DNA of 64,000 nt, from positions 2,712 to 66,711 of the forward strand of contig JBLMWC010000012.1 of assembly GCA_050257015.1 (NCBI GenBank), written 5' to 3'. The notes below the pieces were generated by a model. The model was not told where the DNA came from. It was given only the letters and a program-made list of their open reading frames with translations, and ran no database searches. Positions 10,273-48,334 of this stretch are shown here, in pieces. The DNA is from Bacillota bacterium (lineage in GTDB: Bacteria > Gemmatimonadota > Gemmatimonadetes > Gemmatimonadales > GWC2-71-9). Numbering within the stretch: position 1 is the first letter of the stretch; each line of letters starts with the position of its first letter. Position numbers and translations under genes: made by a program.

Positions 10273-10274
10273 CC

Positions 10275-31403: not shown

Positions 31404-32348
31404 GTGCTGATCAATCTCCTCCCTGATTTTCTCGCCGTACTCGACGCCGCCGACCCCCGGGCGGACTATCAGCGATACCGCGACGCCCACCGCCCCATCC
31501 TCGACGCGTACTGGCACAATTACGTCCTGGATCCCGACAGCCCGCAGGCCGACGAAGTGGTCGAGACGGCGCTCGCCGCCGACCGGAGCGACCTGACGGC
31601 ACTCCTCGATTCCACCGACCTGGTGCAGCTGGTTGAGGAATCGGCGGCGAAGGCTCACGAGATCCTCCGGATCGACCAGCCCACCGACTGCTATCTCATG
31701 GTCGGCATGGGTGGCGCGAATGCCGGCGAGCTGGTGGTCGGAGGCCGCGGGATCGCGTTCATCTGTGCCGAGCACTTCACCGGGCGGGTGAACCCGCAGA
31801 CGTACGGGATGGGCCTCTCGCCCGACCTGATCCCCCTCTGGGTGGCGCACGAGCTGGCCCACACCGTGCGCTACACCTCCCCCGGAAGCGCCAGCGACTT
31901 CCGGCGGCTGATCGCCGAGGCGGGCGGAAGCTACGACTACTGGCAGACCGGGAGCCGGGCTACGCTGCGGGAGCTGCTCCTGAACGAGGGGCTCGCCGTG
32001 CACGCGGCACAGGCCGTGGCCCCCGGATTCGACCCGGCCGACTACTTCGGCTATCCCCGTCGCCAGTACCACCGGCTGCGGGAGATCGAGTCATTCCTGC
32101 GCCGTGTGAGCGAGCCCGACCTCGACTCGAGCGGACTGGGCCTCCGGCTCCGCTACCTCTCGGGCGGCATGAGCCCGTCGTCCCGTCTCATCGGAGGCCG
32201 GGTCATCCCGGAGCGCTCGGGCTACTACCTGGGATACCGGATGGCGGAGGCGCTGGTGGCCGAGCGCGGGATCGCGGCGGCGCTGAGAGCGTCGGTGGAG
32301 GAATTCCAGCTCGCGGAAGAGGCGGCGCGCGGGATTCAGAGCGCGTGA
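31404..32348 (+). CDS. DUF2268-like predicted Zn-dependent protease
   Basis: HELAH motif in LWVAHELAHTVRY. The overall pattern (..YLMVGMGGANAGE.., ..LLNEGLAVHAAQ..) resembles DUF2268. Confidence 0.6.
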   Translation: MLINLLPDFLAVLDAADPRADYQRYRDAHRPILDAYWHNYVLDPDSPQADEVVETALAADRSDLTALLDSTDLVQLVEESAAKAHEILRIDQPTDCYLMVGMGGANAGELVVGGRGIAFICAEHFTGRVNPQTYGMGLSPDLIPLWVAHELAHTVRYTSPGSASDFRRLIAEAGGSYDYWQTGSRATLRELLLNEGLAVHAAQAVAPGFDPADYFGYPRRQYHRLREIESFLRRVSEPDLDSSGLGLRLRYLSGGMSPSSRLIGGRVIPERSGYYLGYRMAEALVAERGIAAALRASVEEFQLAEEAARGIQSA

Positions 32349-32560
32349 GCGATCCGGTCACGCCACCCGCCACTCCGGCGATCACCACCGTCACCTGGAA
32401 GCCCTCCGGCCCCTGCATCATCGAAGGGCCGGTCGTGATCCGGAACAACGACGGCGACATCCTGATCCCGCCCCCCACCAAGCACCCCGGCCAGGTGAAG
32501 CTCTGCGGCTGCGGCCGCTCGGCCAACAAGCCGTTCTGCGACGGGAGCCACAAGCGCTAG
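32345..32560 (+). CDS. CDGSH-type iron-sulfur domain protein
   Basis: C-terminal CGCGRSANKPFCDGSH motif. 71 aa. GTGA overlap with the upstream gene. Confidence 0.85.
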   Translation: MSDPVTPPATPAITTVTWKPSGPCIIEGPVVIRNNDGDILIPPPTKHPGQVKLCGCGRSANKPFCDGSHKR

Positions 32561-32561: not shown

Positions 32562-33428
32562 TCAAGCCGTCTTCTCCTTCACCTCCGTCTGCTCCTGGCC
32601 TTTCTCCTTCCGCTCCGTCACCACCTGCCCGTAGTTCAGGATCGCCACCAGCATCACTCCGCCGATCGCATTGCCGATCACCGCCGCGACGATGAACGAG
32701 ATCATCGGCGCCCACCCCGCTGACCCGACCCACACCCGGTAGAACGCCTCCGACGACCCGACGATCGAGTGCTTGAAGTCGAACGCGGAGATCGGGGCAG
32801 TGAGGAGCCAGATGAGAACGAGCTGCGCGCCGGTATGGCGCGTGGAGGCGAGCACCCAGGTGAGGAGGGCGATGAGCCAGCCGGCGAAGATCGCGTGATA
32901 GAGCGTGAGCGAGAAGGGGAGCGCCGTCGCCCGCTCCGCCAGCTGCAGCATCCCTGCCTTGAGCGGCTCGGCGACCGCCGGGGTCCGGGCCATCACCCAC
33001 GAGAACAGGAGGGTACCGGTGAGGTTGCCGGCCAGGAGCAGCCCCCAGACGCGGAGCATCCTCAGCAGCGTGACCCGGTCGCGTCGGTGGAGGAGGGGGA
33101 GCACCGGCGTGAGCGTGTTCTCGGTGAAGAGCTCGCTCCGCGCCATGATGACGAAGATGAATCCGAGCGGGTAGGCCGCTGATGCCGCCGCCGCCGCGTA
33201 GGCCGGCGGCACGAGCGAGGCGGCGTAGGCGCCGCCCAGAAAGCTGAACCCTATCGCAAGTCCCGAGGCGAAGGAGGAAATCAGAAGCGAGGCCGTCGCC
33301 CGCTTCAGCTCCTCGTCGGCCTCGCTCATCACGTTGTCGTGGATCTCGCTCGCCGACAGGCGAGTGCCGGTCTCGGGCTCGTCGACCGAGCTGCTCCCCG
33401 GCCGGCCGGGCGCTTCGGGGGATTTCAT
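32562..33428 (-). CDS. Formate/nitrite transporter (FNT) family channel
   Basis: Six-TM pattern with ..ARSELFTENT.. and ..GNLTGTLLF... 288 aa including a charged N-terminal extension. The stop is 1 nt from the convergent CDGSH gene stop. Confidence 0.8.
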   Translation of the reverse strand: MKSPEAPGRPGSSSVDEPETGTRLSASEIHDNVMSEADEELKRATASLLISSFASGLAIGFSFLGGAYAASLVPPAYAAAAASAAYPLGFIFVIMARSELFTENTLTPVLPLLHRRDRVTLLRMLRVWGLLLAGNLTGTLLFSWVMARTPAVAEPLKAGMLQLAERATALPFSLTLYHAIFAGWLIALLTWVLASTRHTGAQLVLIWLLTAPISAFDFKHSIVGSSEAFYRVWVGSAGWAPMISFIVAAVIGNAIGGVMLVAILNYGQVVTERKEKGQEQTEVKEKTA

Positions 33429-33614
33429 CGGCCGACGCTACCGATGCGCCGGCGAGCCGGATGTGCCGGACGTCACAGGCGTGCGTCGGGGGCGTCAGGC
33501 GGGCAGCGCGGTGTACGCTGCATCACAGCAGACTGCTTTGGCGGCCCATACTCTCAGCGCTAGTCAGCAGTTCGCCGGTGCGATCGTGGCGCACCAGACC
33601 GACGGAGGAGCTCT

Positions 33615-35495
33615 GTGTCTGCGGACGTGCGTGTCGCATTGCCGGTTCGTTTCATCGTCGCCATCGCCGCCGGTGTCCTCACTGCCGCCTGCTCGCGGGA
33701 CGGAAACGCTGCGCGCCCCGCGGCAGGCCGCCCGACCGCGGTGGCCGCCGCCACCCCGTCGGCGTCCACCGGCCGGGCCTCCATCGCGGCGGATGCGACG
33801 GCGCCGGAGGACGGTCAGTGGATCCGCCCCGCCAAGGATTACGCCTCCTCCCGCTACAGCGGGCTCGGCGACATCAACACCTCCAACGTCGCGCAGCTCC
33901 GGCCGGTGGTGACCTTCTCGACTGGGGTGCTGCGCGGCCAGGAGGCGGCGCCGATTGTCGTCAACAACACGATGTACGTCATCACGCCGTTCCCCAACTA
34001 CGTCTACGCGCTCGATCTCACGAAGCCGGGCGCCCCCGTGAAGTGGACGTACAAGCCGAAGCCGCTGGCGGCGGCCCAGGGCGTCGCGTGCTGTGACGTG
34101 GTGAATCGGGGGGTCGTCTACGCCGACGGCAAGATCATCCTCAACACCCTCGACGACCACACCATAGCCGTGGACGCCGGCACCGGTGAGGAACTCTGGC
34201 GGACGCGCGTGGGAGACATCAACCTCGGCGAGTCGCTCACGATGGCGCCGCTGGTGGTGAAGGACAAGGTGCTTCTGGGGAACAGCGGGGGCGAGTTCGG
34301 GATACGCGGGTGGCTCACCGCCCTCGACCTGAAGACCGGCAAGCTCGCCTGGCGGGCGTACGGCACCGGGCCCGACAAGGATGTGCTCATCGGCCCCCGC
34401 TTCCATCCGTTCTACGCGGCCGATCGCGCGCCCAATCTCGGCGTCGCCAGCTGGCCGGGGGACATGTGGAAGATCGGCGGCGCCGGCGCATGGGGATGGA
34501 TTTCGTATGATCCGGGGCTCGATCTCATCTACTACGGCACCAGCAACCCGGGCCCGTGGAATCCCGACCAGCGTCCCGGCGACAACAAGTGGTCGAGCAC
34601 CCTCTTCGCGCGCGACCCGGACACCGGCGAGGCCGTCTGGGCCTACCAGCTGACGCCGCACGACCTGCACGACTACGACGGCATCAACGAGAGCGTGCTG
34701 CTCGACGTTCCGTGGAAGGGACAGGTGCGGAAGGTCCTCATCCGTCCCGAGCGGAACGGCTACGTGTACATGATCGACCGGACCACCGGTGAAGTGCTCT
34801 ACGCGAATCCGTTCGGCTACATCAACTCCAGCACGGGTGTCGATCTCCGCACCGGCCGCCTCCAGGACGCACCTGACAAGACGCCGGTCCTCGGCAAGGT
34901 CGTCCGCGACATCTGCCCCGCCGCGCCCGGCGTGAAGGACTGGCAGCCGTCGTCGTTCTCGCCGCGCACCGGGTACCTCTACATCCCGCACCAGAACCTC
35001 TGCATGGATGTCGAGAGCATCGAGGCGAGCTACGTCGCGGGGACGCCGTTCGTCGGCATGAACGTGAAGATGAAGGCCGGCCCCGGTGGGCACCGCGGCG
35101 AGCTCACCGCCTGGGACCCCGTCGCCGGCAAGGCGGTCTGGGTCATCAAGGAAGACCTGCCGGTCTGGAGCGGCACCGTCGCGACGGCGGGGGATGTGGT
35201 CTTCTACGGCACGATGGACGGCTGGTTCAAGGCGCTCGACGCGCGGACCGGCACCGAGCTCTGGAAGTTCAAGACCGGCTCGGGCATCATCGGCCAGCCG
35301 ATCGTGTATCGCGGGCCCGACGGGAAGGAATACGTCGCCGTGCTGTCGGGAGTCGGCGGATGGTCGGGAGCGATCGTAGCGGGCGGGCTCGATCCGCGGG
35401 ACTCGTCGGCGGCACTCGGCTTCGTCAACGCGATGCGGGATCTGCCGCAGAAGAGCACCAAGGGCGGGATGCTCTATGTCTTCGCGCTTCCGTAG
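33615..35495 (+). CDS. xoxF: PQQ-dependent alcohol (methanol/ethanol) dehydrogenase, XoxF type, with the lanthanide-coordination signature
   Basis: SRYSGLGDINTSNVAQL..FSTGVLRGQEAAPIVVNNTMYVITPFPNYVYALDL. Vicinal disulfide VACCDVVNRG. HDLHDYDGINE with D-Y-D at 34671-34679. GGAGGAG is upstream of GTG 33615. The signal peptide is lipobox-like (VLTAAC). Confidence 0.9.
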   Translation: MSADVRVALPVRFIVAIAAGVLTAACSRDGNAARPAAGRPTAVAAATPSASTGRASIAADATAPEDGQWIRPAKDYASSRYSGLGDINTSNVAQLRPVVTFSTGVLRGQEAAPIVVNNTMYVITPFPNYVYALDLTKPGAPVKWTYKPKPLAAAQGVACCDVVNRGVVYADGKIILNTLDDHTIAVDAGTGEELWRTRVGDINLGESLTMAPLVVKDKVLLGNSGGEFGIRGWLTALDLKTGKLAWRAYGTGPDKDVLIGPRFHPFYAADRAPNLGVASWPGDMWKIGGAGAWGWISYDPGLDLIYYGTSNPGPWNPDQRPGDNKWSSTLFARDPDTGEAVWAYQLTPHDLHDYDGINESVLLDVPWKGQVRKVLIRPERNGYVYMIDRTTGEVLYANPFGYINSSTGVDLRTGRLQDAPDKTPVLGKVVRDICPAAPGVKDWQPSSFSPRTGYLYIPHQNLCMDVESIEASYVAGTPFVGMNVKMKAGPGGHRGELTAWDPVAGKAVWVIKEDLPVWSGTVATAGDVVFYGTMDGWFKALDARTGTELWKFKTGSGIIGQPIVYRGPDGKEYVAVLSGVGGWSGAIVAGGLDPRDSSAALGFVNAMRDLPQKSTKGGMLYVFALP

Positions 35496-36318
35496 CGCCG
35501 TCCTCCTCGCCGCGCTCGCCGCGGGGACAGCGGCGGCGGCGTATCAGGCGCCGCACCGCGCCCCGCGGGAGCTCCGCGTGTGCGCCGACCCGAACAACCT
35601 GCCGTTCACCAACCGTCAGGGCGAGGGATTCGAGAATCGGATCGCGGAGCTGGTCGCGCGCGATCTGCATGCGCGGCTGACCTACACCTGGTGGGCCCAG
35701 CGGCGCGGCTTCTTCCGCAACACCCTCAACGCATCGCTCTGCGACGTCGTGATGGGCGTCCCCAGCGACCTCGACATGGTCCGGCCGACGGCGCCGTACT
35801 ACCGGTCGAGCTACGTCTTCGTCACCCGCCGCGACCGGAATCTGCGGATCACGTCGCTCGACGACCCTGTCCTCCGGCGGCTCCGGATCGGCGTGCAGCT
35901 CATCGGCAACGACTACATGAACACGCCGCCGGCCCACGCCCTCTCGCGGCGCGGCATCGTGCGGAACGTCGTCGGCTACACCGTCTACGGCGACTACTCG
36001 AAGCCGAATCCGCCGGCGCGCATCCTCGACGCGCTGGCGCGCGGCGAGGTGGACGTCGCGATCGTGTGGGGCCCGCTGGGCGGCTACTTCGCCACGCGGG
36101 AGCGGACGCCCCTCGTCATCACGCCGGTCACCCCGGAAATGGAGCCGCCCGGGATCCCGCTGGCCTACAACATCTCCATGGGGGTGCGGAAGGCGGACGA
36201 CTCGCTCCGGCGCGAGCTCGATCGGGTGATCGTCCGTCGGCGCGTCGAGATCGACCGGATCCTCGAGGCGTTCGGCGTGCCGCGCCGGCCGCTGCCGCCT
36301 ACCACGCCTGCATCGTAG
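35476..36318 (+). CDS. xoxJ: Quinoprotein-dehydrogenase-associated periplasmic binding protein (MxaJ/XoxJ family)
   Basis: LRVCADPNNLPFTNRQGEGFENRIAELVA..YTWWAQRRGFFRNTL..CDVVMGVP..YYRSSYVFV is the MoxJ-type SBP pattern. It overlaps the xoxF end by 20 nt. Confidence 0.85.
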   Translation: MSSRFRSAVLLAALAAGTAAAAYQAPHRAPRELRVCADPNNLPFTNRQGEGFENRIAELVARDLHARLTYTWWAQRRGFFRNTLNASLCDVVMGVPSDLDMVRPTAPYYRSSYVFVTRRDRNLRITSLDDPVLRRLRIGVQLIGNDYMNTPPAHALSRRGIVRNVVGYTVYGDYSKPNPPARILDALARGEVDVAIVWGPLGGYFATRERTPLVITPVTPEMEPPGIPLAYNISMGVRKADDSLRRELDRVIVRRRVEIDRILEAFGVPRRPLPPTTPAS

Positions 36319-36330
36319 CGCGAGGACGTC

Positions 36331-36888
36331 ATGCCGCATCCCTCTCTCCGCCTCGCACTCATCCTCGCGGGACTGCTGCTGGCCTCGGCCTGCCAGCGGG
36401 AGACCCGCCGCTTCCGCGAGTCGCCGCCCGCTGCGACTTCCGAGACCGCCGTCGCGATGAGCGAGCTGCAGCCGGGCCCGAAGGCGCGCGCGCTGCCGGT
36501 GGTGAACCCGTATGAGAAGAACGCCTACGCCGTCTCCGAGGGCGAGCGCCTCTTCGGCGCCTACAACTGCACCGGCTGCCATTCCCACGGCGGCGGCGGG
36601 ATCGGTCCGGCGCTGATGGACGACGAGTGGATCTACGGCAGCGACCCCGAGAACATCTTCTCCACGATCGTCGAAGGTCGCCCGAACGGCATGCCGACCT
36701 TCCGCGGGAAGATCCCCAACTACCAGGTCTGGCAGATCGTGGGCTATGTCCGCTCGATGAGCGGGCTGCTCGCCAAGGACGTGGCGCCCGCGCGGGACGA
36801 CCATATGGTCATGGTGCCCGAGCCGCAGCGCACGCAGGTGAAGGAGCCGATCCACGCCTTCACGCCGCCGGCGGCGGAGCATCCCTGA
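36331..36888 (+). CDS. Lipoprotein-anchored mono-heme c-type cytochrome
   Basis: Lipobox LLLASAC, heme site NCTGCH and distal GMPTF. It belongs to the family commonly encoded just upstream of aa3/caa3 oxidase genes. Confidence 0.85.
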   Translation: MPHPSLRLALILAGLLLASACQRETRRFRESPPAATSETAVAMSELQPGPKARALPVVNPYEKNAYAVSEGERLFGAYNCTGCHSHGGGGIGPALMDDEWIYGSDPENIFSTIVEGRPNGMPTFRGKIPNYQVWQIVGYVRSMSGLLAKDVAPARDDHMVMVPEPQRTQVKEPIHAFTPPAAEHP

Positions 36889-37841
36889 TGCCGGACTGGC
36901 TCCAGTCGGTGCTGCAGCCCGCGGGGCCTCAGGCGGAGCGGATCCACGCGCTGTGGCGCTTCATGCTCGCCGTCTCGGTGGTGGTCTACGTCGTCGTCGT
37001 CGGAGCTCTCCTCCTCGCCGCCTTCCGGCGCCGCCACACCGAGGCCGAGCTGGCCGAGGGCGCGCCGGGTGAGCGGGGAGTGACGCGGATCGTCTCGTTC
37101 GCGACGGCCGTCACGGCGCTCACCCTCTTCGCGTTTCTCGTCTTCGATTTCTCGACCGGCCGCGCGCTGACATCCACCGTGAAGCCGTCGGTGGCGATCG
37201 AGGTGACCGGCCACCAGTGGTGGTGGGAGGTGACCTACTACCATGACATTCCCAACAAGCGGGTCACGACCGCGAACGAGATCCACATCCCGGTAGGCAG
37301 TCCGGTGCTCATCCGCCTCAATTCGCAGGACGTGATCCACAGCTTCTGGGCCCCGGACCTCAACGGCAAGCGCGACCTCATTCCCGGCAAGGAAAGCAGC
37401 CTCTGGCTGCAGGCCGACACCCCTGGCGTCTACCGCGGCCAGTGCGCCGAGTTCTGCGGGTACCAGCACGCGAAGATGGCGTTCGTCATCGTGGCCGACC
37501 GCCCGGCCGACTTCCAGCGCTGGTACGCGGCGCAGGCCGACACGGCGAAGACCCCCACCGACTCGCTCACGTCGCGGGGGCAGGAGGTCTTCCTCACGTC
37601 GCCGTGCGTGATGTGCCATGCCATCCACGGCACCCCCGCCGGAGCCACGCTCGGGCCCGACCTCACGCACATCGCCAGCCGGCGCTACATCGGCGCGGGC
37701 TCACTGCCCAACACCCGCGGCAACCTCGCCGGGTGGATCCTCGACGCGCAGGGAATCAAGCCCGGCGCGCGCATGCCGCCGAACAGTCTGGCCCCGGCCG
37801 ACCTCCAGGCTCTCCTCGCCTACCTCGGGACTCTGAAATGA
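36888..37841 (+). CDS. ctaC: Cytochrome c oxidase subunit II with a fused C-terminal cytochrome c domain (caa3-type)
   Basis: CuA site CAEFCGYQHAKM and the C-terminal heme motif CVMCH. The start is the ATG in the TGATG overlap. It lies within track ORF 36627-37841. Confidence 0.92.
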   Translation: MPDWLQSVLQPAGPQAERIHALWRFMLAVSVVVYVVVVGALLLAAFRRRHTEAELAEGAPGERGVTRIVSFATAVTALTLFAFLVFDFSTGRALTSTVKPSVAIEVTGHQWWWEVTYYHDIPNKRVTTANEIHIPVGSPVLIRLNSQDVIHSFWAPDLNGKRDLIPGKESSLWLQADTPGVYRGQCAEFCGYQHAKMAFVIVADRPADFQRWYAAQADTAKTPTDSLTSRGQEVFLTSPCVMCHAIHGTPAGATLGPDLTHIASRRYIGAGSLPNTRGNLAGWILDAQGIKPGARMPPNSLAPADLQALLAYLGTLK

Positions 37842-39781
37842 GTGCGCCGATCACCGCCGATCCCGCCGCCGTGGAGCCGGCGGAGCGCGCATCGGTTCGC
37901 GAGCTCCACGAGGAGCTGCACCGGACCTGGGCCGACGGGCCGGGACTCCTCGGCTGGCTGATGAGCGTGGATCACAAGTCGCTGGGCAAGCGATACGTGA
38001 TCACCGCCTTCGTCTTCTTCCTCCTCGGCGGCATCGAGGCGGCGATGATGCGGGTACAGCTGGCGCGACCCGAGAGCCGGCTGATCGGGCCCGATCTCTA
38101 CAACCAGCTGTTCACCACCCACGGCACCACGATGATGTTCCTCTTCGCGGTGCCGGTGATGGTGGCCATGGGACTCTATCTCGTCCCGCTGATGATCGGC
38201 TCGCGCGATGTCGCCTTCCCCCGGCTCAACGCCTACGGATACTACACCTACCTCATCGGCGGGCTGTTCCTCTATGCGGCGTTCTTCCTCAACACCGGAC
38301 CCGACGCGGGATGGTTCGCGTACACGCCGCTCTCGGGGCCCGAGTTCGCCCCCGGCAAGCGCGTGGACGTCTGGGCGCAGACGATCACCTTTACCGAGAT
38401 CTCGGCGATCATCGGCGCCATTGAGCTGATCGTCACGATCTTCAAGCAGCGCGCGCCGGGGATGTCGCTCAACCGGATGCCGCTCTTCGTGTGGTCGGTG
38501 CTGGTGATGGCGTTCATGATCCTGTTCGCCATGCCGTGGGTGGCCGTGGACAGTCAGTTCCTCGCGATGGACCGTCTGATCGGCACCCACTTCTTCAACC
38601 AGGCCGAGGGCGGCGACGCGCTCCTCTGGCAGCACCTGTTCTGGTTCTTCGGGCATCCCGAGGTCTACATCATCTTCATCCCGGCGCTCGGGTACGTCTC
38701 GACGATCATCGCCACCTTCACCCGGCGCGAGATCTTCGGCTACCCCGCGATGGTCCTCTCGCTCGTCGCCACCGGCTTCCTCGGCTTCGGGCTCTGGGTG
38801 CACCACATGTTCGCGACCAACATCCCGCAGCTCGGCGAGAGCTTCTTCACCGCCGCGAGCGCCATGATCGCGATCCCCACCGGGGTGCAGTTCTTCTGCT
38901 GGATCGCCACCATCTGGGGCGGACGCCCGCGCTTCACCACGCCGTTCCTGTTCATCCTCGGCTTCATGGTGACATTCCTGATCGGCGGCCTCTCCGGCGT
39001 GATGGTCGCCTCGGTGCCGTTCGATCTTCAGGTTCACGACACCTTCTTCGTCGTCGCGCACCTCCACTACGTGCTGATCGGCGGCGCCGTCTTCCCGCTG
39101 TGGGGCGCGTTCTACTACTGGTTCCCGAAGTTCACCGGCCGGATGCTGAGCGAGCGGCTGGGCCGCTGGAACTTCGCGCTCTTCTTCATCGGGATGCATC
39201 TCACGTTCTTCCCGATGCACCAGCTCGGCCTCGACGGGATGCCGCGCCGGGTCTACACGTACCTGGCGGAGACCGGCTGGGGAACGCTGAACCTCGTCGC
39301 CACGATCGGCGGCGTCACCATCGCCGTTAGCGTCCTGGTCTTCCTGTTCAACGTCGCGCGGTCGCTCGCCAACGGCGAGATCGCGTCCAGCGATCCGTGG
39401 GAGACGAGCTCCACTCTCGAGTGGGCCACGACCTCGCCGCCGCCGCCGTACAACTTCGCGCACCTTCCAGTGGTCCAGGGCCGCTACCCGCTCTGGAGCC
39501 GGACGCTCGACGAGCCCGTCGTCACCGGTCTCCGGACCGACCAGCGTCAGCTGCTGATCACAACGCTGCTCGATGCTGCGCCCGACCATCGGCATCGCAC
39601 GCCCGATCCGACGCTGTGGCCGCTCGTCGCCTCCATCGCCACCGGCATCACGTTCATCGCGCTGATCTTCACGCCGTGGGCACTGGTCGTCGGTGCCGCG
39701 CTCATCGCGGGGCCGCTGATCGCGTGGGGCTGGCCCAGGCCCAAGCCGGGAGATCCGATCGTGACCGGAGGCGTCCGATGA
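37838..39781 (+). CDS. ctaD: Cytochrome c oxidase subunit I (with an extra C-terminal two-helix extension)
   Basis: VDHKSLGKRY, TTHGTTMMFLF, WFFGHPEVYI and HHMF motifs. 647 aa. ATGA overlap. It lies within track ORF 37442-39781. Confidence 0.95.
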   Translation: MSAPITADPAAVEPAERASVRELHEELHRTWADGPGLLGWLMSVDHKSLGKRYVITAFVFFLLGGIEAAMMRVQLARPESRLIGPDLYNQLFTTHGTTMMFLFAVPVMVAMGLYLVPLMIGSRDVAFPRLNAYGYYTYLIGGLFLYAAFFLNTGPDAGWFAYTPLSGPEFAPGKRVDVWAQTITFTEISAIIGAIELIVTIFKQRAPGMSLNRMPLFVWSVLVMAFMILFAMPWVAVDSQFLAMDRLIGTHFFNQAEGGDALLWQHLFWFFGHPEVYIIFIPALGYVSTIIATFTRREIFGYPAMVLSLVATGFLGFGLWVHHMFATNIPQLGESFFTAASAMIAIPTGVQFFCWIATIWGGRPRFTTPFLFILGFMVTFLIGGLSGVMVASVPFDLQVHDTFFVVAHLHYVLIGGAVFPLWGAFYYWFPKFTGRMLSERLGRWNFALFFIGMHLTFFPMHQLGLDGMPRRVYTYLAETGWGTLNLVATIGGVTIAVSVLVFLFNVARSLANGEIASSDPWETSSTLEWATTSPPPPYNFAHLPVVQGRYPLWSRTLDEPVVTGLRTDQRQLLITTLLDAAPDHRHRTPDPTLWPLVASIATGITFIALIFTPWALVVGAALIAGPLIAWGWPRPKPGDPIVTGGVR

Positions 39782-40413
39782 GCGCGGTCGAGTCGGCCCG
39801 GATGCAGGGAGAGCGCGGATCGATCGACGTCTCCGCCCTGCCCGAGACCACCTTCGGGCACCGCGCGGTCACGTGGTGGGGAACCCTCGGCTTCATGGCC
39901 GCGGAGGGGACGACCCTCCTCATCTGCGCCGTCGCCTACCTCTATGTGCAGCGGAACTTCCGGCAATGGCCACCGTCGGAAACTCCGCTGCCGTCGCTCA
40001 CCATCCCGACGGTGCAGGTCGCCCTCATGCTGCTCAGCATCCCGGTGATGGTGTGGACCGCGCACGCCGCGCGCCGTCTGGAGCTGGGCAAGATCCGGCT
40101 CGGCATGGTGCTCTCCACCGCCTTCGCCCTCGCCTTCTGCGTGCTGCGCTGGTTCGAGTTCCGGGCCCTGCACACCCGCTGGGACAGCAACGCCTACGGC
40201 TCCGTAGCATGGGCGATCGTCTTCGCCCACGCCACGCTCCTGGCCGCGCAGTTCGGCGAGAGCGCCTCGATGGCGGCGCTCCTCTTCACCGGCCCGGTCG
40301 AGCCGAAGCACTTCGCGGACGTCGACGACAGCTGTCTCTACTGGTACTTCATGACCGGCTCCTGGGTGCTGCTCTACCTGCTGGTCTTCATCTCGCCGAG
40401 ACTCATGCAATGA
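39778..40413 (+). CDS. ctaE: Cytochrome c oxidase subunit III
   Basis: 211 aa and multi-TM, with ..TFGHRAVTWWGTLGFMAAEGT.. and ..YWYFMTGSWVLLY.., typical of subunit III-like proteins. ATGA overlap. Confidence 0.8.
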   Translation: MSAVESARMQGERGSIDVSALPETTFGHRAVTWWGTLGFMAAEGTTLLICAVAYLYVQRNFRQWPPSETPLPSLTIPTVQVALMLLSIPVMVWTAHAARRLELGKIRLGMVLSTAFALAFCVLRWFEFRALHTRWDSNAYGSVAWAIVFAHATLLAAQFGESASMAALLFTGPVEPKHFADVDDSCLYWYFMTGSWVLLYLLVFISPRLMQ

Positions 40414-40796
40414 ATCGCGAGCTCGAGATCGACACCAGCACCGGCATCCCCGACGCCCGGCACGTCGTGGCCCAGGTGGCCGGCGTCCTCGTCCCGCCGC
40501 TGGCGACGCTGGCGGGGATGGAAGTCTCCTACGGCCTCGTCGGGCCGGCCTGTACGTCGGGCAACACCCTCGCGCTCCACCTGACCCGGCTGGTGACGCT
40601 CCTCGTCGTCCTCGGTGCCGGGCTCATCGCGTGGCGGGAATGGCGCGCCGTCGGTGTCGAGCACCCCGGCGACGGCGGAAGCCCGGGCACGCGGGCCCGG
40701 TTCCTCTCGTGGGTCGGCGTCTTCGCCGCGGGCCTCTTCTCGCTGGTGGTGATTGCCCAGTGGCTCGCCGGCCTCTTCCTCTCGCCCTGCCAGTGA
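40410..40796 (+). CDS. Small integral membrane protein of the oxidase cluster (unknown function)
   Basis: 128 aa with three to four hydrophobic helices. It is tied to both neighbours by ATGA/GTGA overlaps. Confidence 0.6.
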   Translation: MNRELEIDTSTGIPDARHVVAQVAGVLVPPLATLAGMEVSYGLVGPACTSGNTLALHLTRLVTLLVVLGAGLIAWREWRAVGVEHPGDGGSPGTRARFLSWVGVFAAGLFSLVVIAQWLAGLFLSPCQ

Positions 40797-41662
40797 ACGC
40801 ACCGCTCGCGCCACACGATCTCTGGAGGGCCTGGAGCTCCGATCCCGGCATCGTGCTGCCGCTCGGCCTTGCCGCGGTCCTGTACGCACGCGGCCTCCGG
40901 GCGCTCTGGCATCACGCCGGGGCGGGACGCGGCATCCGTCGCTGGCAGGCGGGCGCGTTCGCTGCCGGCTGGCTGGTGCTGGCGATCGCGCTCGTGTCCC
41001 CGCTGCACGAGCTCGGGGAAACGCTCTTCTCCGCGCACATGGCACAGCACGAGCTCCTCATGGCGGTCGCCGCGCCGCTCCTCGTGCTGGGCCGCCCGGT
41101 CATTCCCTTCCTCTGGGGGCTTCCAATCGGGTGGCGGCGCGTCGCCGGTCAATGGGCCTCCACGCCGCCGGTACGGGCGACGTGGCACGCCCTCACCCTG
41201 CCCTCGGTCGCGTGGACGCTGCACGCCACCGCGATCTGGGCCTGGCACGCGCCACGGCTCTACGATGCCGCCGTCACGAGCGACCTGGTCCATGCGCTCC
41301 AGCACGCGAGCTTCCTCGGCTCGGCGCTGCTCTTCTGGTGGGCGCTGATTTACGGGCGAAACGGCCGCCTCCGCTACGGCGCCTCGGTGCTCTACATCTT
41401 CACCACCGCGCTCCACACCACGGCGCTTGGCGCGGTGCTCTCGCTCGCGTCGCGGCCGCTCTACCCGGCGTACACCGCCACTGCGGCGTGGGGACTGACA
41501 CCGCTCGAGGACCAGCAGCTCGCCGGACTGATCATGTGGGTGCCGGCGGGCATCGCCTACCTGGTCGCGGCGCTGGCGCTGATGGCGGGATGGCTGCAGG
41601 AGGCGGAGCGGCGCACCGTGCGGTCGGAGGCGGCGGCGCTGGCGCTCCGAGGCCAGCCATGA
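40793..41662 (+). CDS. ctaG: Cytochrome c oxidase assembly protein, caa3-CtaG (Bacillus type) family
   Basis: Multi-TM protein with ..LVSPLHELGETLFSAHMAQHELLMAVAAPLLVLG.. and ..HALQHASFL... GTG 40793 overlaps the upstream stop. Confidence 0.8.
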   Translation: MNAPLAPHDLWRAWSSDPGIVLPLGLAAVLYARGLRALWHHAGAGRGIRRWQAGAFAAGWLVLAIALVSPLHELGETLFSAHMAQHELLMAVAAPLLVLGRPVIPFLWGLPIGWRRVAGQWASTPPVRATWHALTLPSVAWTLHATAIWAWHAPRLYDAAVTSDLVHALQHASFLGSALLFWWALIYGRNGRLRYGASVLYIFTTALHTTALGAVLSLASRPLYPAYTATAAWGLTPLEDQQLAGLIMWVPAGIAYLVAALALMAGWLQEAERRTVRSEAAALALRGQP

Positions 41663-42033
41663 CGCGCCTCACGCTCGCCGTCCTCGCGCTCATGCTTGCC
41701 GGTGCCGCCTGCGACCGCGAGCCGGCCGACCGCTCGATGCGGCAGCTCACCGGCGGGGACTCCCACCGCGGCCGGCAGATCGTACGGGCGTACGGCTGCA
41801 CCGCGTGCCACCTGATCCCCGGCGTGCCCGGCCCCGATGCGCGGGTCGGTCCCCCGCTCGCCGGAATCGCCAGCCGCGCGTTCATCGCCGGCGTGCTGCC
41901 GAACCAGCCCGGCAACATGATCCGCTGGATCCGCGATCCGCAGGGCGTCGGCCAGCGGACCGCCATGCCCGACATGGGTGTCAGCGAGCGCGACGCGCGC
42001 GACATCGCCGGCTATCTGTACACCCTGAGATAG
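41659..42033 (+). CDS. Lipoprotein-anchored mono-heme c-type cytochrome (second copy)
   Basis: Lipobox MLAGAAC, heme motif GCTACH and distal TAMPDMG. ATGA overlap. Confidence 0.8.
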   Translation: MTRLTLAVLALMLAGAACDREPADRSMRQLTGGDSHRGRQIVRAYGCTACHLIPGVPGPDARVGPPLAGIASRAFIAGVLPNQPGNMIRWIRDPQGVGQRTAMPDMGVSERDARDIAGYLYTLR

Positions 42034-42043
42034 CGAGGCCTCC

Positions 42044-42454
42044 GTGCCCGGCCGCCTCGCCGTCGCGCTCGTGCTTCTCACCGCCTGCTCGAGCGGACCC
42101 TCACCGAAGAAGGCGGAAAAGGAGCGCGAGCGCGCTGCGTCCGCCGCCACCTCGGCCGGCATGATCGCCGCCGCGTGGGACTCCGGCGCGGCGCCCGGGA
42201 TCTACGCCTCGCACGCGCTCCGGCGGATCAGCGCGGACTTTCGCCAGGGAGGGGAGGCGCCGGTGTGGTCCGCGCTTCCCCCCGCCTCACGCATCGCGCT
42301 CACCGCCGAGCTCGGAGCACTGCATGGAGTGACCGCGGGGATCGACAGCGCGATCGGCCGCCGGGACCACGCCGCAGTGCGCACACTCCACCGCGCACTC
42401 GCGGAGCACGGCCACGCGCTTGCCGCCGTCCCGATCGACACCGCGTCCCGATGA
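42044..42454 (+). CDS. Helical His-rich lipoprotein of unknown function
   Basis: Classic lipobox LLTACSS. 136 aa, Ala/His-rich (..RDHAAVRTLHRALAEHGHALA..). Its stop overlaps the Nramp-like start (ATGA). Confidence 0.6.
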   Translation: MPGRLAVALVLLTACSSGPSPKKAEKERERAASAATSAGMIAAAWDSGAAPGIYASHALRRISADFRQGGEAPVWSALPPASRIALTAELGALHGVTAGIDSAIGRRDHAAVRTLHRALAEHGHALAAVPIDTASR

Positions 42455-43665
42455 AGCGTCTCATCGAGATCGCCCTCGGCATCGTCACCGGGATCGGCGG
42501 CTTCCTCGAGGCCGGCTCGCTCGCCACCAGCGCGCAGGCCGGCGCCGACTTCCGCTTCGACCTCATCTGGGCAGTGGTCCTCGGCGCGACCTGCCTCGCC
42601 TTCCTGGTCGAGATGTCGGGCCGGCTTTCCGCCATCAGCAAGCACACTCTCCCCGACGCCATCCGCGAGCGGTTCGGCTTCCGCTTTTTCGTGCTGCCGC
42701 TCGTGATCATGCAGCTGGTCATGCTCCTCGTAATGGTGACCGAGCTCGGCGGCGTCTCGATCGCACTCCAGTTCATCAGCGGCGTGAGCTACCGCTGGTG
42801 GGCCATCCCCGTCGGGGGGCTCACGTGGGCGCTCCTCTGGAAGGGAACGTTCGGCCTGATCGAGAAGGGAGTGTCACTGCTCGGGCTCGTCACCCTCGCG
42901 TTCGTCGTGGGAGCGCTGCACCTCCACCCGCCGATGGCCGAGGTGGCGCGCGGTGCCCTTCCTCGCCTCCCGTCCCATGACAGCGCCCACTACTGGTTCC
43001 TCGCCGTAAGCATCCTGGGCGCGTCGATCAGCCCGTATCTCTTCTTCTTCTATTCCGCGGGCGCGGTCGAGGACCGGTGGGACGTGAGCCACCTGACGAT
43101 CAACCGGATCACCGCCGGCGCCGGCATGGGCTTCGGCGGCATCGTGGCGATCGGCGCACTCGTGCTCGCGGGAATGATCTTCCACCCCGCGGGCATCCAG
43201 GTGGACAGCTTCGACCAGCTCCCGCTCCTGCTCACGAGCGCGTTCGGACACTGGGGGTTCGTGCTGTTCGTCGCCTCGCTCGCGATCGCCTGCTTCGGCG
43301 CCGCGCAGGAGATCGCCCTCACCTCGGCCTACCTGATGGCGCAGGGATTCGGCTGGCGCTGGAGCGAGAACCTGCCTCCGGCCGCCGATGCGCGGTTCAG
43401 TCTCACCTACACCGCGATCACCGCGCTGGCGGTCATCCCGATCGCCGCCGGCGTGGACGTGCTCAAGCTGACGAACATCTCGATGGTCTTCAGCGCCGCG
43501 TCGCTGCCGTTCGTCGCGCTGCCGCTCCTCGTCATCATGAACGACCGGCGCTTCCTCCGCGATCACTGCAACGGCTGGGTGGGCAACATCGTCGTCGCGC
43601 TCATCGCCGTCCTCGCCTTCGTGCTCGCGGTCGTGTCGTTCCCCCTGCTCATTACCGGAGGGTGA
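42451..43665 (+). CDS. Nramp-family transporter with a non-canonical metal-binding site
   Basis: The TM1 region GIGGFLEAGSLATSAQAGADFRFDLIW aligns without gaps to canonical ..DPGN.ATN.QAGA.YGY.LLW. The TM6 region ILGASISPYLFFFYS aligns to ..GA.VMPH..YLHS. 404 aa. It lies within track ORF 42175-43665. Confidence 0.85.
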   Translation: MKRLIEIALGIVTGIGGFLEAGSLATSAQAGADFRFDLIWAVVLGATCLAFLVEMSGRLSAISKHTLPDAIRERFGFRFFVLPLVIMQLVMLLVMVTELGGVSIALQFISGVSYRWWAIPVGGLTWALLWKGTFGLIEKGVSLLGLVTLAFVVGALHLHPPMAEVARGALPRLPSHDSAHYWFLAVSILGASISPYLFFFYSAGAVEDRWDVSHLTINRITAGAGMGFGGIVAIGALVLAGMIFHPAGIQVDSFDQLPLLLTSAFGHWGFVLFVASLAIACFGAAQEIALTSAYLMAQGFGWRWSENLPPAADARFSLTYTAITALAVIPIAAGVDVLKLTNISMVFSAASLPFVALPLLVIMNDRRFLRDHCNGWVGNIVVALIAVLAFVLAVVSFPLLITGG

Positions 43666-43666
43666 G

Positions 43667-44032
43667 ATGCTGCTCGTGCGTGACGTGCTCGACAAGCAGA
43701 TGCTGGACCGCGACGGCGACAAGATGGGGAAGGTGGACGGCGTGGTGCTCCAGGTGAGCGAGGAGGGTCCGCCGCGCGTCGTCTATCTGGAGGCCGGCGC
43801 CCCGACGCTCGCCCGCCGCCTGGGGCTGCGGATCGGACGCTGGGTATCGCGCCTGGCCCGGCGCTGGGGCGGCGCCCACCCGGAGTCATACCGCATTCCA
43901 TGGACGAAGGTCCGCGAGGTGACGCTGGACGTGCGCATCGACGTGAAGGCGGACGAGACGCGGGTAAACGTGGTGGAGGACTGGCTCCGCACGCATGTGG
44001 TGGAGCACCTGCCGGGAGGGAAGAAACAGTGA
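43667..44032 (+). CDS. PRC-barrel domain protein
   Basis: VRDVLDKQMLDRDGDKMGKVDGVVLQV is a PRC-barrel-like N-terminus. GGAGGG lies inside the end of the Nramp gene, with a 1-nt gap to it. Confidence 0.65.
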   Translation: MLLVRDVLDKQMLDRDGDKMGKVDGVVLQVSEEGPPRVVYLEAGAPTLARRLGLRIGRWVSRLARRWGGAHPESYRIPWTKVREVTLDVRIDVKADETRVNVVEDWLRTHVVEHLPGGKKQ

Positions 44033-44319
44033 CGCCGCGGGAGGTGCATCTCGAGCTGCTGCTCGGTCGGCGAGTGCGGGACAGCCGCGGCCGCCCCGCC
44101 GGCCGCATCGAGGAGGTGCTCGCGGATCGCGAGGACCTCGACTGCGTCGTGCGCGAGTTCCATCTCGGCCCTCACGCGCTGGTGGAGCGTCTCTCGCTTC
44201 CGCTCGTTCGATTCTTTCGCGGCCGGTCGCACGGCCTGCGCCCGGTGCCGTGGGACCGGCTCGACCTGACCGATCCCGCTCAGCCGCGGCTCACCTGCAC
44301 CCTCGAGGAGCTGAAGTAG
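44029..44319 (+). CDS. Small PRC-barrel-like protein
   Basis: LLLGRRVRDSRGRPAGRIEEVLAD.. resembles a PRC-barrel. GTGA overlap with the upstream gene. It lies within track ORF 43900-44319. Confidence 0.5.
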   Translation: MTPREVHLELLLGRRVRDSRGRPAGRIEEVLADREDLDCVVREFHLGPHALVERLSLPLVRFFRGRSHGLRPVPWDRLDLTDPAQPRLTCTLEELK

Positions 44320-44323: not shown

Positions 44324-45643
44324 TCACTTCCCGACGCAGAACGACGCGAAGACGCGCCCCAGCACCTCCTCGATGTCGATCGTGCCCAGCAGCTCATCCA
44401 GCGCGCCCGCCGCCTCGCGCACGTGGTGCGCCGCGAGCACCGGATCGCCGCCGCGAGCGAGGTGCGGGCCCGCCCCCGCGAGCGCGTCCCGTGCGCGCTC
44501 GAGCGCAACCCGGTGCCGCTCCCGCGTGAGCCCCGGCTCGAGGTCGGCGAGCGACGCCTTCGCGTCGAAGAGCCGCGCCGCGATCCGCGTCCGGAGCGCG
44601 TCGAGGCCGGCGCCGGTGACGACCGACACCCCGCCCTCCGCTCGCGGGTGGAGATCCGACTTGGTCCGGACCAGGAGGGCGGGATGCTCGACGAGCAGAC
44701 GCTCCTCGTCGTCGCCGGCCGTCCGCTCCCCTTCGACGCAGAGCAGCATGAGATCAGCGGCGCCGAGGTAGCGGCGGCTGACCTCGATGCCGAGTCGGTC
44801 GATCGGATCGGCCGAGTCCCAGAGTCCCGCCGTGTCCACCAGACGCACCGGCCAGCCCAGCAGGTCGGTGTGCGCTTCGATCGCGTCGCGCGTAGTGCCT
44901 GGCGTATCGGTGACGAGCGCACGCGCGGTCCCGAGCAGCGCGTTGAAGAGCGATGACTTGCCGGCGTTGGGCCGGCCGGCCAGCACCACCAGCGCTCCCT
45001 CGCGAAGCCGCTCTCCTGCCGGTGCCGTCGCGATCAGCTGCTCGATCCGTCCCCGTACCTCCTCGGCGCGCCCGGCGATGCGCTCGAGCGGGACCGGGCC
45101 GTCGTCTTCGTCCGGGAAGTCGATCTCGTAACCCAGCAGTGCCTGGACGTCGAGGAGCGCGCTCCGAAGCTCGCCGAGCCGCCGGGAGAGCCCGCCCTCG
45201 AGCTGCGCCAGGGCGGCGCGCGCCTGCGCGGGCGCGCTCGCGTCGATGAGATCGCCGACCGCCTCGGCCTGGACCAGATCCATCTTGCCGTTGAGCACCG
45301 CGCGCCGGGTGAATTCTCCCGGCGCGGCGGGACGCGCGCCGGCGGCCTGGATCGCGGCGATCAGCTGGGCCGGCACGCTCAGGCCGCCGTGGCAGGAGAG
45401 CTCCACGAGGTCGTCGCCGGTGTAGCTGGCCGGCCCGGGAAAAACGGTGTAGAGCCCGCGGTCGATCGGCGTGCCGTCGGCGGCGTGGAAGGTGGTGAGG
45501 GTGGCGGTACGGGGAGGATCGGTCCTGAATCCGGTGATGACGCGGCTCGCGATGGCGAACGCGCCGTCGCCGCTCAGCCGGACGACCGCGAGCGCGGAGC
45601 GGCCGGCCGGTGTGGCGAGGGCGACGATCGGATCCGACAGCAC
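44324..45643 (-). CDS. mnmE: tRNA modification GTPase MnmE
   Basis: [23 protein letters not shown]-domain [26 protein letters not shown], and the C-terminal CVGK. Confidence 0.95.
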
Positions 45644-45647
45644 CGAC

Positions 45648-47360: not shown

Positions 47361-47380
47361 GGTCTCTCTAGATCAGGACA

Positions 47381-47611
47381 TCAGGGGACGGGATCGACGC
47401 CGCCCGGATTGAACGGATGGCATCGCATGAGTCGGCGCGCGGCGAGCCACGACCCGCGGAGCGCGCCGTGGCGGGTGATCGCTTCGAGCGCGTAGGCGGA
47501 GCAGGACGGCGTGAACCGGCACGAGGGCGGGAGTGCCGGCGAGATGAATCGCTGGTAGCCGCGAATGGGGAGCGCGAGAATCTGTCGGGGAAGCCGTCCG
47601 AATGGCACCAT
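47381..47611 (-). CDS. yidD: Membrane protein insertion efficiency factor YidD
   Basis: [48 protein letters not shown] prefer ATG 47611 over the track start 47641, which would overlap rnpA. Confidence 0.9.
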
Positions 47612-47615
47612 GCGG

Positions 47616-47969
47616 TCACTCAGCGGCCAGTGTCGCGTCACGCCAGCCGACGATCTGCCGGCGCAGAGAATTGAACGGCGCCGCGTAGGCCTCGCGGCGT
47701 GCGCGAATCACGAGATCCCACGCCGGCTGATGGGGCTGCACATCCCGGCGCCAGATCTCCTTCAGCCGCCTCCGCAAACGATTGCGGGCCACCGCGCTGG
47801 ACTGGAACTTGGGTACGATCAGTCCCATGCGCGGGTGGCCCGTTGTGTTGTCGACCCAGATCATGTCGAGATGCTCGGTCCTGCGGCGCCGACCGTTGTT
47901 CAGGCACCGGCGGATGTCGGACGCCCGCGCGAGCCGGCTGGCTCGCGTGTGGCGCTCCGATGGCGTCAG
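47616..47969 (-). CDS. rnpA: Ribonuclease P protein component
   Basis: ..[30 protein letters not shown].. is the RnpA RNR motif. There is no ATG, GTG or TTG between the rpmH stop and the conserved N-terminal region. The only in-frame start-like codon is CTG 47969, which overlaps the rpmH TGA. The start is uncertain. Confidence 0.8.
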
Positions 47970-48127
47970 GAACCCCCGTGCTTCGACGGGATCGAGACGA
48001 CGAGCTGCTTGCGGCCCTTCTTGCGGCGGCGCGACAGCACCGCGCGGCCCCAGCGCGTGGCCATGCGGGCGCGGAATCCATGCTTGGCGATCCGGCGCTT
48101 GTTGCGCGGACGATACGACGGCTTCAT
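47966..48127 (-). CDS. rpmH: 50S ribosomal protein L34
   Basis: Not in the track because it is under 60 aa. My translation is [53 protein letters not shown], a canonical L34 core. It sits immediately upstream of rnpA. Confidence 0.93.
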
Positions 48128-48334
48128 TGGTCACGGCTCCTGAAGTAAGCCCGGAAACGTAGCGGGGGTGCGGTACCCGGTCAAGCCGCGCCCTGCCTCA
48201 TTGCGAGGCGGCAGCGCCGCCGCGGCAATCGCGTCGCCTTCGCCGAATCCCCGCGCTCGCAGCGCTCGCATGCCTGTCCCCTGCACGCCTCTCAACGTTC
48301 TGTCAACCCAGCCGCGTGTCCATTTTCCGCCCAT

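Follow-up and report, generated by a model that had tools for sequence, protein, structure and literature searches.

The closest described relative of the gene cluster considered here is the 'XoxF3 system' of Acidobacteria and Gemmatimonadetes (Voutsinos et al. 2024, BMC Biol 22:41, PMC10875860), in which genes for XoxF3, XoxJ and XoxG are found together with those for CoxI, CoxII and CoxIII, CtaG, CytC and an NRAMP protein flanked by small hypothetical proteins. The NRAMP of these systems was proposed as a possible lanthanide transporter, and Keltjens et al. 2014 are credited, as cited in PMC10875860, with reporting cox genes and ctaG in xoxF3 operons. The cluster that we describe comprises thirteen genes at positions 33615–44319 of a 64,000 nt stretch of contig JBLMWC010000012.1 (assembly GCA_050257015.1, of Gemmatimonadota lineage); we refer to this whole stretch as the window, and positions are counted from its first nucleotide. 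An earlier note on this DNA held the arrangement to be undescribed, but it has been published as the XoxF3 system: the gene set and the phyla are the same, including the small hypothetical protein that separates CoxIII from CtaG and the three small hypothetical proteins around NRAMP, and nothing essential differs in the window. The arrangement is already known bioinformatically and is experimentally untouched, and the window is a further example of it. What can be added to the published description is that the hypothetical proteins downstream of the NRAMP are PRC-barrel paralogs, that the upstream one is a lipoprotein, and that the Nramp unit stands as a module of its own, with a link to the oxidase cassette.

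We consider it likely that the thirteen genes constitute one operon beside the replication origin, that this operon is a member of the XoxF3 systems, and that it is made up of three separable modules. Module A (xoxF and xoxJ) would provide a lanthanide-type pyrroloquinoline quinone (PQQ) alcohol dehydrogenase, apparently lipid-tethered, with an XoxJ-like partner; module B (genes 3–9) would be an oxidase cassette; and module C (genes 10–13) would be an independent unit consisting of a lipoprotein, an Nramp-like transporter and two PRC-barrel paralogs. A full-text literature search found no publications linking xoxF with Nramp beyond PMC10875860, and searches of the literature found no published description of an association between Nramp and PRC proteins, nor of an independent Nramp-lipoprotein-PRC-PRC module or its tie to a portable dehydrogenase-coupled caa3 cassette. 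A New Phytologist paper that names both 'Nramp' and 'PRC-barrel' proved to be unrelated, and a 2026 preprint on lanthanide (Ln)-PQQ enzymes contains nothing on Nramp or cox.

All thirteen open reading frames (ORFs) lie on the + strand in the same direction, and both this and the junctions listed in the earlier note were exactly reproduced from the ORF list and its translations. The xoxF and xoxJ genes overlap by 20 nt (at 35476), there are gaps of 12 nt, 10 nt and 1 nt (at 36331, 42044 and 43667 respectively), and the remaining eight junctions are overlaps of 1 or 4 nt, such that the largest internal gap is 12 nt. The third-position GC content of 0.82–0.93 in the thirteen frames, within a sequence of about 70% GC, indicates that they are coding, and GGAGG-like ribosome-binding sites are present upstream of several of the starts. 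A foreign island was ruled out by composition, as the GC content of the cluster (0.66–0.72) matches that of the rest of the window. Internal terminators or promoters, which the earlier note had named as evidence that would split the unit, are not seen above chance between 32000 and 46000: there are four terminator-like sites versus 3.1 expected from shuffled sequences, none of them in a + strand intergenic gap, and a sigma-70 consensus scan returned no promoter-like sites, although Gemmatimonadota promoters lie outside what this consensus covers and the scan is uninformative for them.

Comparison with relatives provides further insight into how the modules are held together. On the XoxF side, a scan of metagenomes gave 80 relatives sharing 63–88% identity with the window protein, and a gene for CoxII or CoxI is present in 35 of the 36 XoxF loci that have at least 3 kb of downstream sequence; the proposal of the earlier note that the dehydrogenase is tied genetically to its own caa3-type oxidase is thus supported. 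The Nramp module, in contrast, is found in only five of the 16 XoxF loci having at least 8.8 kb downstream, with two more in which it lies upstream and is divergently oriented. Taken together, these counts show that the link between XoxF and the oxidase is near-obligate in this clade, whereas the Nramp module is a facultative add-on. The earlier view of the Nramp and PRC genes as intrinsic members of the XoxF unit is therefore not supported, a point reinforced by the presence of the module without XoxF3 in cyanobacteria and beside the cassette on plasmids.

The Nramp-side scan, using one genome per species, identified at least 417 confirmed relatives, and the best 80 loci were analysed (the window being the 81st); these are from Gemmatimonadales, Blastocatellia/Pyrinomonadaceae, Mesorhizobium, cyanobacteria (Nostoc, Microcoleus and others), Chloroflexia and Rokubacteria. 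Both PRC genes are situated downstream of the Nramp gene at all 80 loci in these six lineages, with the first PRC gene no more than 6 nt from the Nramp stop codon in 72 of them and a second Nramp paralog apparently intervening in three others. The same four-gene unit (lipoprotein-Nramp-PRC-PRC) is also present on a Streptomyces plasmid, at only 34% identity. A gene of the cox cassette is found within the flank (about 10 kb) at 32 of the 80 Nramp loci: 12 of 16 loci in Gemmatimonadota, 12 of 17 in Acidobacteriota, seven of 19 in Mesorhizobium and the single locus in Rokubacteria, but none of the 25 in Cyanobacteria or the two in Chloroflexia. At all 25 cyanobacterial loci the module stands alone with neither xoxF nor cox nearby, and it likewise stands alone at both Chloroflexia loci. 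Where module and cassette do occur together there are four arrangements: fused and co-directional; divergent (L078, L137 and L138); convergent and about 7 kb apart; and co-directional but separated by 1–12 kb with other genes between. The thirteen-gene arrangement recurs in Gemmatimonadota, Acidobacteriota, Rokubacteria and Mesorhizobium, far beyond chance, and the synteny whose absence in relatives would, according to the earlier note, have spoken against its proposal is conserved across phyla.

The plasmid-borne relatives are particularly informative. Mesorhizobium plasmid pB1-1-8 carries a nine-gene XoxF-XoxJ-cytochrome-CoxII-CoxI-CoxIII-small-CtaG-cytochrome block in the same order as the window, convergent with the four-gene Nramp module situated about 7 kb away, and with pqqBCDE nearby. 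On Rhizobium plasmids (T1473, Pop5 and NXC24a) there is a matching oxidase cassette, with a CoxI about 60% identical and the Nramp module 1–12 kb away, but it is led by an FdhF/YdeP-family molybdopterin oxidoreductase in place of xoxF-xoxJ; these cassettes, which comprise cytochrome c, CoxII, CoxI, CoxIII, CtaG and cytochrome c, are at 4421–12503 of L166, 278–8210 of L170 and 8583–16707 of L171. A Caballeronia plasmid also has the cassette and the Nramp module without XoxF3. Two Gemmatimonadales loci look like decay intermediates, in which xoxF and the oxidase genes have been lost but the Nramp-PRC-PRC triad is retained. The first, L001 (9024–9183), lies at the window's own chromosomal site and keeps only xoxJ (82% identical) and the triad, with a recognisable remnant of the 3′-end of xoxF; as the remnant lies upstream of xoxJ, deletion is favoured over insertion, although this is one comparison and only suggestive. 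The second, L008 (9035–11896), keeps only a CtaG gene, possibly truncated, and the triad. From the plasmids and the decay intermediates together it follows that the Nramp module is selected on its own and that it recurrently partners the oxidase cassette and not XoxF, which weakens the idea that it transports lanthanides.

Other genes accompany the system in particular lineages. In Blastocatellia a YncE-like beta-propeller gene and then a TonB-dependent receptor gene follow directly after the PRC genes, neither of which is present in the window. On rhizobial and Streptomyces plasmids the Nramp module is situated amid general-stress-type genes (13215–15502 and 18075–20514 of L164, 3860–11058 of L168, and 26801–36593 of L170), which encode ferritin-like/DUF892, DUF3618, holin-like, CsbD, Hsp20 and 'general stress protein' products as well as STAS, ANTAR and PP2C signalling proteins.

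Turning to the individual genes, the first (33615–35495) encodes a XoxF-type, that is lanthanide-type, PQQ methanol/alcohol dehydrogenase (TIGR03075, 630 bits versus a cutoff of 480), whose best match among solved structures is the XoxF of strain SolV (4MAE, E 2e-197). In the alignment with 4MAE both the vicinal cysteine pair ('vaccd'/'vaccd') and the DYD motif ('hdydg'/'wdydg') pair with identical residues, and C159, C160, D353 and D355 are invariant in nine members of the clade. The protein scores 660 bits to XoxF2 (4MAE), 573–582 bits to XoxF5 and about 530–540 bits to MxaF, and these scores, together with the identities within its own clade given above, are consistent with a separate clade. 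Its N-terminus has a hydrophobic stretch ending in cysteine followed by a low-complexity linker of about 45 amino acids; the stretch and the cysteine are seen in 11 of 17 XoxF homologs, most of the others being N-terminally truncated or over-extended ORFs, and XoxF is apparently a lipoprotein tethered to the membrane. The second gene (35476–36318) encodes a XoxJ-like periplasmic binding protein of the MoxJ_2 subfamily (TIGR03871, 317.5 bits versus a cutoff of 212), which is below the cutoff of the MoxJ equivalog TIGR03870 (147.6 versus 258 bits). The third (36331–36888) is in the XoxG position and encodes a lipoprotein c-type cytochrome (PF13442, PF00034 and a CxxCH motif) with a lipobox-like cysteine in 18 of 19 homologs; it is presumed to be the primary electron acceptor of XoxF, and given its CxxCH motif and its place beside xoxJ it may have a XoxG-like role outside the MoxG equivalog.

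Canonical xoxF-xoxG-xoxJ clusters, such as those of XoxF5 in Methylorubrum extorquens and XoxF2 in Methylacidiphilum fumariolicum SolV, share with the window the DYD and Cys-Cys site, a dedicated c-type cytochrome and a XoxJ-type protein. The window differs from them in its F-J-cytochrome order, in a cytochrome that fails the MoxG model, in a XoxJ of the MoxJ_2 subfamily, in a XoxF that is apparently lipoprotein-tethered, and in having a complete terminal oxidase next in the operon. The earlier note had described the result as a self-contained respiratory chain, and this stands with respect to the electron carriers but not in full, as the scan of window genes, which was not directed at heme A synthesis or Sco-type factors, turned up neither pqq biosynthesis genes nor a TonB-dependent receptor. 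Other PQQ- or lanthanide-related genes lie near the system in other lineages (9285–12371 and 21906–22868 of L164, and 11897–15249 of L002), and none of these is present in the window.

The oxidase encoded by genes 4 and 5 has the features of an A1-type caa3 enzyme: CoxI and CoxII are above their curated cutoffs, and there are a CuA site, a GHPEV motif and a fused cytochrome c domain. Gene 4 (36888–37841) encodes CoxII with the C-terminal cytochrome c domain (TIGR02866, 175 bits versus 147.7; PF00116 and PF00034), in which the CuA motif H...CAEFC..H..M and the heme motif CVMCH are present and PF00034 covers residues 230–317. Gene 5 (37838–39781) encodes CoxI of A1 type (TIGR02891, 716.7 bits versus 670.75; PF00115, 513 bits) with GHPEVY and HDTFFVVAHLHY motifs and a hydrophobic C-terminal extension of about 100 amino acids past the model matches. 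Gene 6 (39778–40413) encodes a short CoxIII-like protein with a weak match to CyoC, and is assigned on the basis of a position kept in 26 loci and of RefSeq naming its orthologs subunit 3.

Gene 7 (40410–40796) is placed at the CtaF (subunit IV) position by location only and encodes a hydrophobic membrane protein of 128 amino acids whose homologs sit between CoxIII and CtaG in 26 loci. Searches against Pfam, NCBIfam and the PDB gave no match for it, also when a profile of 13 members was used, and as neither the protein nor its 12 homologs match COX4_pro, we dropped its identification as CtaF/COX4_pro. A published similarity to vesicle-mediated transport proteins was not reproduced, there being one weak PRA1 match in one of the 13 members, which we judged to be due to chance. 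C48 and C127 are invariant, one of the two lying within a C-terminal 'PCQ' motif, and the protein might assist the oxidase as an accessory for redox chemistry or copper handling. Gene 8 (40793–41662) encodes CtaG, the caa3-type oxidase assembly factor (PF09678, Caa3_CtaG, 205.8 bits versus a cutoff of 27.7), although it is below the Bacillus-type equivalog TIGR02737 (68 versus 279 bits). The final gene of the cassette, gene 9 (41659–42033), encodes a second small c-type cytochrome with a lipobox-like N-terminus (PF00034, 27.5 bits; CxxCH), and follows CtaG on the Mesorhizobium and Rhizobium plasmids as well.

The order of these genes is that of the Bacillus subtilis caa3 operon, ctaCDEF-ctaG, which we take to encode subunit II with cytochrome c, subunits I and III, a small fourth membrane protein and the Caa3_CtaG factor. 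The window differs in that its fourth gene has no detectable similarity to CtaF/COX4_pro, and in that its cassette is bracketed by two additional c-type cytochromes and coupled to a periplasmic dehydrogenase. It may be that the cassette serves as a terminal-oxidase unit that is portable and can be joined to one dehydrogenase or another.

The first gene of the Nramp module, gene 10 (42044–42454), encodes a small lipoprotein with a lipobox. Homologs are present at 52 of the 81 Nramp loci, most of them ending 4 nt inside the start of the Nramp gene, and 49 of the 52 have the lipobox cysteine; they also have a conserved SW..TA....W..G..P..Y motif, and neither the window protein nor its cyanobacterial and Mesorhizobium homologs match any family in Pfam or NCBIfam. 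Gene 11 (42451–43665) encodes a divergent member of the Nramp/SLC11 family (PF01566, 199.5 bits versus 29.8, residues 24–375). It was rejected as a canonical MntH, as it scores 101.5 versus 430 bits with NF001923 and 53.5 versus 272.5 bits with TIGR01197, and the DPGN and MPH motifs are absent.

The best PDB match of gene 11 is the Mg2+ transporter EleNRMT (7QIA, E 5e-28). Published signatures of the metal site distinguish NRAMP (DxxN-A/CxxM), NRMT (DxxG-TxxA/T) and NRAT (DxxN-AxxT) proteins (PMC8806188), and the EleNRMT paper does not mention operons. The site of gene 11 itself reads EAGS / ASIS-P-Y, and when EleNRMT and DraNramp are aligned with members of the family from seven lineages, the family shows a common pattern of [D/E]xG[S/A/E/D] in transmembrane helix 1 (TM1) and AxxS/T-P-[Y/F/T] in TM6, with replacement of the TM10 glutamine by methionine or leucine. 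The acidic residue of TM1 is thus kept (D/E), the asparagine becomes S/A/E/D, the TM6 methionine becomes serine or threonine, and the histidine becomes tyrosine, phenylalanine or threonine. The family fits none of the NRAMP, NRMT and NRAT signatures, and we rejected gene 11 as an NRMT because DxxG-TxxA/T is not satisfied, notwithstanding that EleNRMT is the closest solved sequence. It resembles EleNRMT and the Al3+ transporter NRAT (8ONT) in its SLC11 fold and in the loss of the TM6 methionine and the histidine, with a hydroxyl in place of soft ligands as in the AxxT of NRAT, and loss of the soft methionine ligand, as in the Mg2+ and Al3+ branches, suggests that the substrate is a hard cation. 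It differs from both in its [D/E]xG[S/A/E/D] - AxxS/T signature, in the change of the TM10 glutamine to methionine or leucine, and in always being encoded with two PRC-barrel proteins and usually with a lipoprotein. At one locus, L040, there is a tandem second Nramp-like paralog (11865–13079), 54% identical to the window protein and with a cyanobacterial-type EVGA/GALIS site, which separates the first Nramp gene from the PRC genes; a similar gap of about 1.9 kb is seen at this position in L062 and L069.

Genes 12 (43667–44032) and 13 (44029–44319) encode two paralogous cytoplasmic proteins for which a PRC-barrel fold is predicted with support at both the family and the fold level. The window proteins themselves are below the PF05239 gathering score of 21.2 (12.5 bits for gene 12 and 11.8 bits for gene 13), and weak matches to this model are seen in 16 of 24 members of the gene-12 family and 17 of 25 of the gene-13 family, with a best E of 1.4e-4. 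The two families are paralogous by hhalign (probability 94.8%), and the gene-13 family profile matches the PRC-barrel structures 1PM3, 8QZO and 8ONW, whereas the gene-12 profile has no matches among PDB sequences. An AlphaFold2 model of gene 12 has a pLDDT (predicted local distance difference test) of 76, and the PDB matches listed for it by Foldseek are filled by PRC-barrel proteins (1PM3, 8ONW, 3HTR, RimM and reaction-centre H subunits); several of the orthologs on RefSeq plasmids are named 'PRC-barrel domain-containing protein'. The archaeal CdpB1/CdpB2 heterodimer (8ONW and 8QZO), which is among the top structural matches, likewise consists of two small paralogous PRC-barrel proteins encoded together, although identity is only 11–17% and the role of CdpB is in FtsZ-based archaeal cell division. 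With this fold-level support for the PRC-barrel pair, the gene annotations of the earlier note hold throughout the cluster.

Upstream of xoxF and divergent from it is a gene for an FNT family (formate/nitrite transporter) channel (32562–33428, - strand; PF01226, 170 bits). The closest genome, L004, has an FNT homolog of 81% amino acid identity that is likewise divergent and in the same place, and others lie a short way downstream of the cluster in L040 and L069; the channel may be an accessory for importing formate derived from methanol. The 186 nt between the two genes (33429–33614) form the only gap within or adjoining the cluster that is long enough for a promoter, and we presume that this is the promoter region. 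It contains a palindrome, GGTGCG-N7-CGCACC, at 33577–33595, just upstream (about 20 nt) of the xoxF ribosome-binding site and found in a single copy in the window, which could be an operator or a hairpin in the 5′ untranslated region. L004 also retains the palindrome, along with the GGAGG site and the xoxF start codon GTG, although with two sequences this is weak evidence. A small gene for a CDGSH-type iron-sulfur protein (32345–32560, + strand; PF09360, 55.6 bits) lies between a DUF2268 gene and the FNT gene, and DNA matching this region is also present in L001. On the other side, the interval 44324–51140 contains mnmE and yidC (- strand) and then dnaA (48405–49781) and dnaN (50025–51140) on the + strand, and the adjoining yidC, dnaA and dnaN place the cluster beside the replication origin. 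Only 4 nt separate the stop codon of the last PRC gene from that of the convergent mnmE, which leaves no space for a terminator between them.

In the mechanism that we propose, an alcohol would be oxidized in the periplasm and electrons would pass from XoxF to cytochrome c, the c-domain and CuA of CoxII, heme a, and then heme a3/CuB and O2; such a route would avoid the quinone pool and the bc1 complex, with proton pumping by the A1-type oxidase. XoxF, the gene-3 and gene-9 cytochromes and gene 10 each begin with a hydrophobic segment ending in cysteine, a heuristic indication that suggests that all of the periplasmic components are lipid-anchored beside the oxidase, as would suit a short, fixed chain. 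Module C would take up a hard cation (Mg2+ or Mn2+, for example, or possibly Ln3+), the direction of transport as well as the ion being conjectural, and the two PRC proteins may be its cytoplasmic heterodimeric partner or regulator, by analogy with CdpB1/CdpB2. The module may in this way support metallation or regulation of the oxidase/dehydrogenase chain. There is a precedent for a dedicated cytoplasmic metal importer in heme-copper oxidase assembly in CcoA of Rhodobacter, a copper importer required for biogenesis of the cbb3 oxidase, although CcoA is a transporter of the major facilitator superfamily with Met-rich motifs and not an Nramp.

Several considerations count against parts of this picture. 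Functions throughout the cluster are assigned from sequence and synteny for every member, and membership of XoxF clade 3 (XoxF3) is taken from the literature description and from synteny with cox, ctaG and NRAMP rather than from a reference tree. The lipoprotein calls were made with a regular-expression heuristic, not with LipoP or SignalP; the gene-3 cytochrome is well below the MoxG equivalog TIGR03872 (44.4 versus 147.8 bits); CoxIII is below its curated cutoff (PF00510, 22.1 bits versus 23.8); and the Foldseek matches of the gene-12 model, with target-normalised TM-scores of up to 0.73–0.76, have a best E of only 2e-3, which is modest. Transport by relatives of the Nramp protein is directed into the cytoplasm, but XoxF and the oxidase's Mg/Mn and CuA sites are on the periplasmic side, so that a role in direct metallation needs an extra step. 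The module also has stress-gene neighbours in rhizobia and Streptomyces, and its closeness to the oxidase could come from a regulon or island that they share instead of from direct coupling.

This last point leads to a different explanation of module C, in which it is a general stress or ion-homeostasis unit, taking up for example Mn2+ or Mg2+ in starvation or desiccation, with no specific tie to XoxF or the oxidase, and adjacency arises from shared islands, regulons or hitch-hiking. That the module is standalone in cyanobacteria, Chloroflexia and Streptomyces, that it is borne on large plasmids, and that its neighbours are DUF892, DUF3618, CsbD, Hsp20, 'general stress protein' and ferritin-like genes on the rhizobial plasmids and STAS, ANTAR and PP2C genes in Streptomyces are all in accord with this. 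Nevertheless, a cox cassette gene is near the module at 32 of 80 loci, which span at least four lineages and show four arrangements, against a random-gene background of about 1% (an inferred estimate and not a computed control), and translational coupling ties the module to the cassette in Gemmatimonadota and Acidobacteriota; we regard a unit of this general kind as rather unlikely. The suggestion made in PMC10875860, that the module imports lanthanides across the inner membrane for the XoxF3 system, replacing a LutAEF-type ABC transporter and supplying Ln3+ for sensing, regulation or storage, appears to us doubtful, and somewhat more so. It gains from the co-location of the module with XoxF3 clusters in Gemmatimonadota, Acidobacteriota, Rokubacteria and Mesorhizobium, from the YncE-like beta-propeller and TonB-dependent receptor that follow the module in Acidobacteria, and from the change of the TM6 methionine to Ser/Thr, as in the AxxT of the Al3+ transporter NRAT, which gives a hard-ligand site compatible with a trivalent hard cation. 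It is difficult to reconcile, however, with the lack of a nearby XoxF3 at every cyanobacterial and Chloroflexia locus (25/25 and 2/2) and on the Streptomyces, Rhizobium and Caballeronia plasmids, with the presence of the module in only five of the 16 XoxF3-cox loci with enough flank, with its retention in relatives that lack xoxF, and with the transport of Mg2+ and Mn2+ by the closest solved homolog.

A further alternative concerns transcription rather than transport. The thirteen genes could belong to more than one transcription unit, with promoters inside coding sequence driving the oxidase, the Nramp module or both, and with the oxidase serving the general cytochrome c pool. The modules are found apart elsewhere, and each must then be expressible alone, and the sigma-70 scan does not cover Gemmatimonadota promoters; but with nine overlapping junctions and no gap longer than 12 nt, with terminator-like sites not above chance, and with XoxF and cox adjacent in 35 of 36 loci, we think such a division of the cluster unlikely, and retain the single operon of three modules as the probable arrangement. 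A stronger proposal for module C goes beyond that arrangement, and we put it forward only as a tentative and on balance improbable one: genes 10–13 would be a previously uncharacterised cation-transport system, found in at least seven lineages, with its own metal-site signature and a PRC heterodimer as partner, and dedicated to dehydrogenase-coupled caa3 cassettes, its most striking version being an inner-membrane lanthanide importer of XoxF3 organisms.

The apparent novelty lies in an Nramp-lipoprotein-PRC-PRC module that is independent yet linked to a portable, dehydrogenase-coupled caa3 cassette, and this reframes the proposed lanthanide carrier as part of an independent and widespread module with two PRC-barrel partners that tracks the cassette over XoxF. 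As the module is present on plasmids of culturable Mesorhizobium, Rhizobium and Caballeronia, its function is open to genetics. XoxF3 is, to our knowledge, among the most abundant of the lanthanide-type dehydrogenases in soil Acidobacteria and Gemmatimonadota, and we know of no experimental study of it. If alcohol oxidation is indeed wired to a private proton-pumping oxidase in these organisms, it would constitute a short respiratory chain without a bc1 complex, and one that would be relevant to the turnover of methanol and volatile organic compounds in soils.

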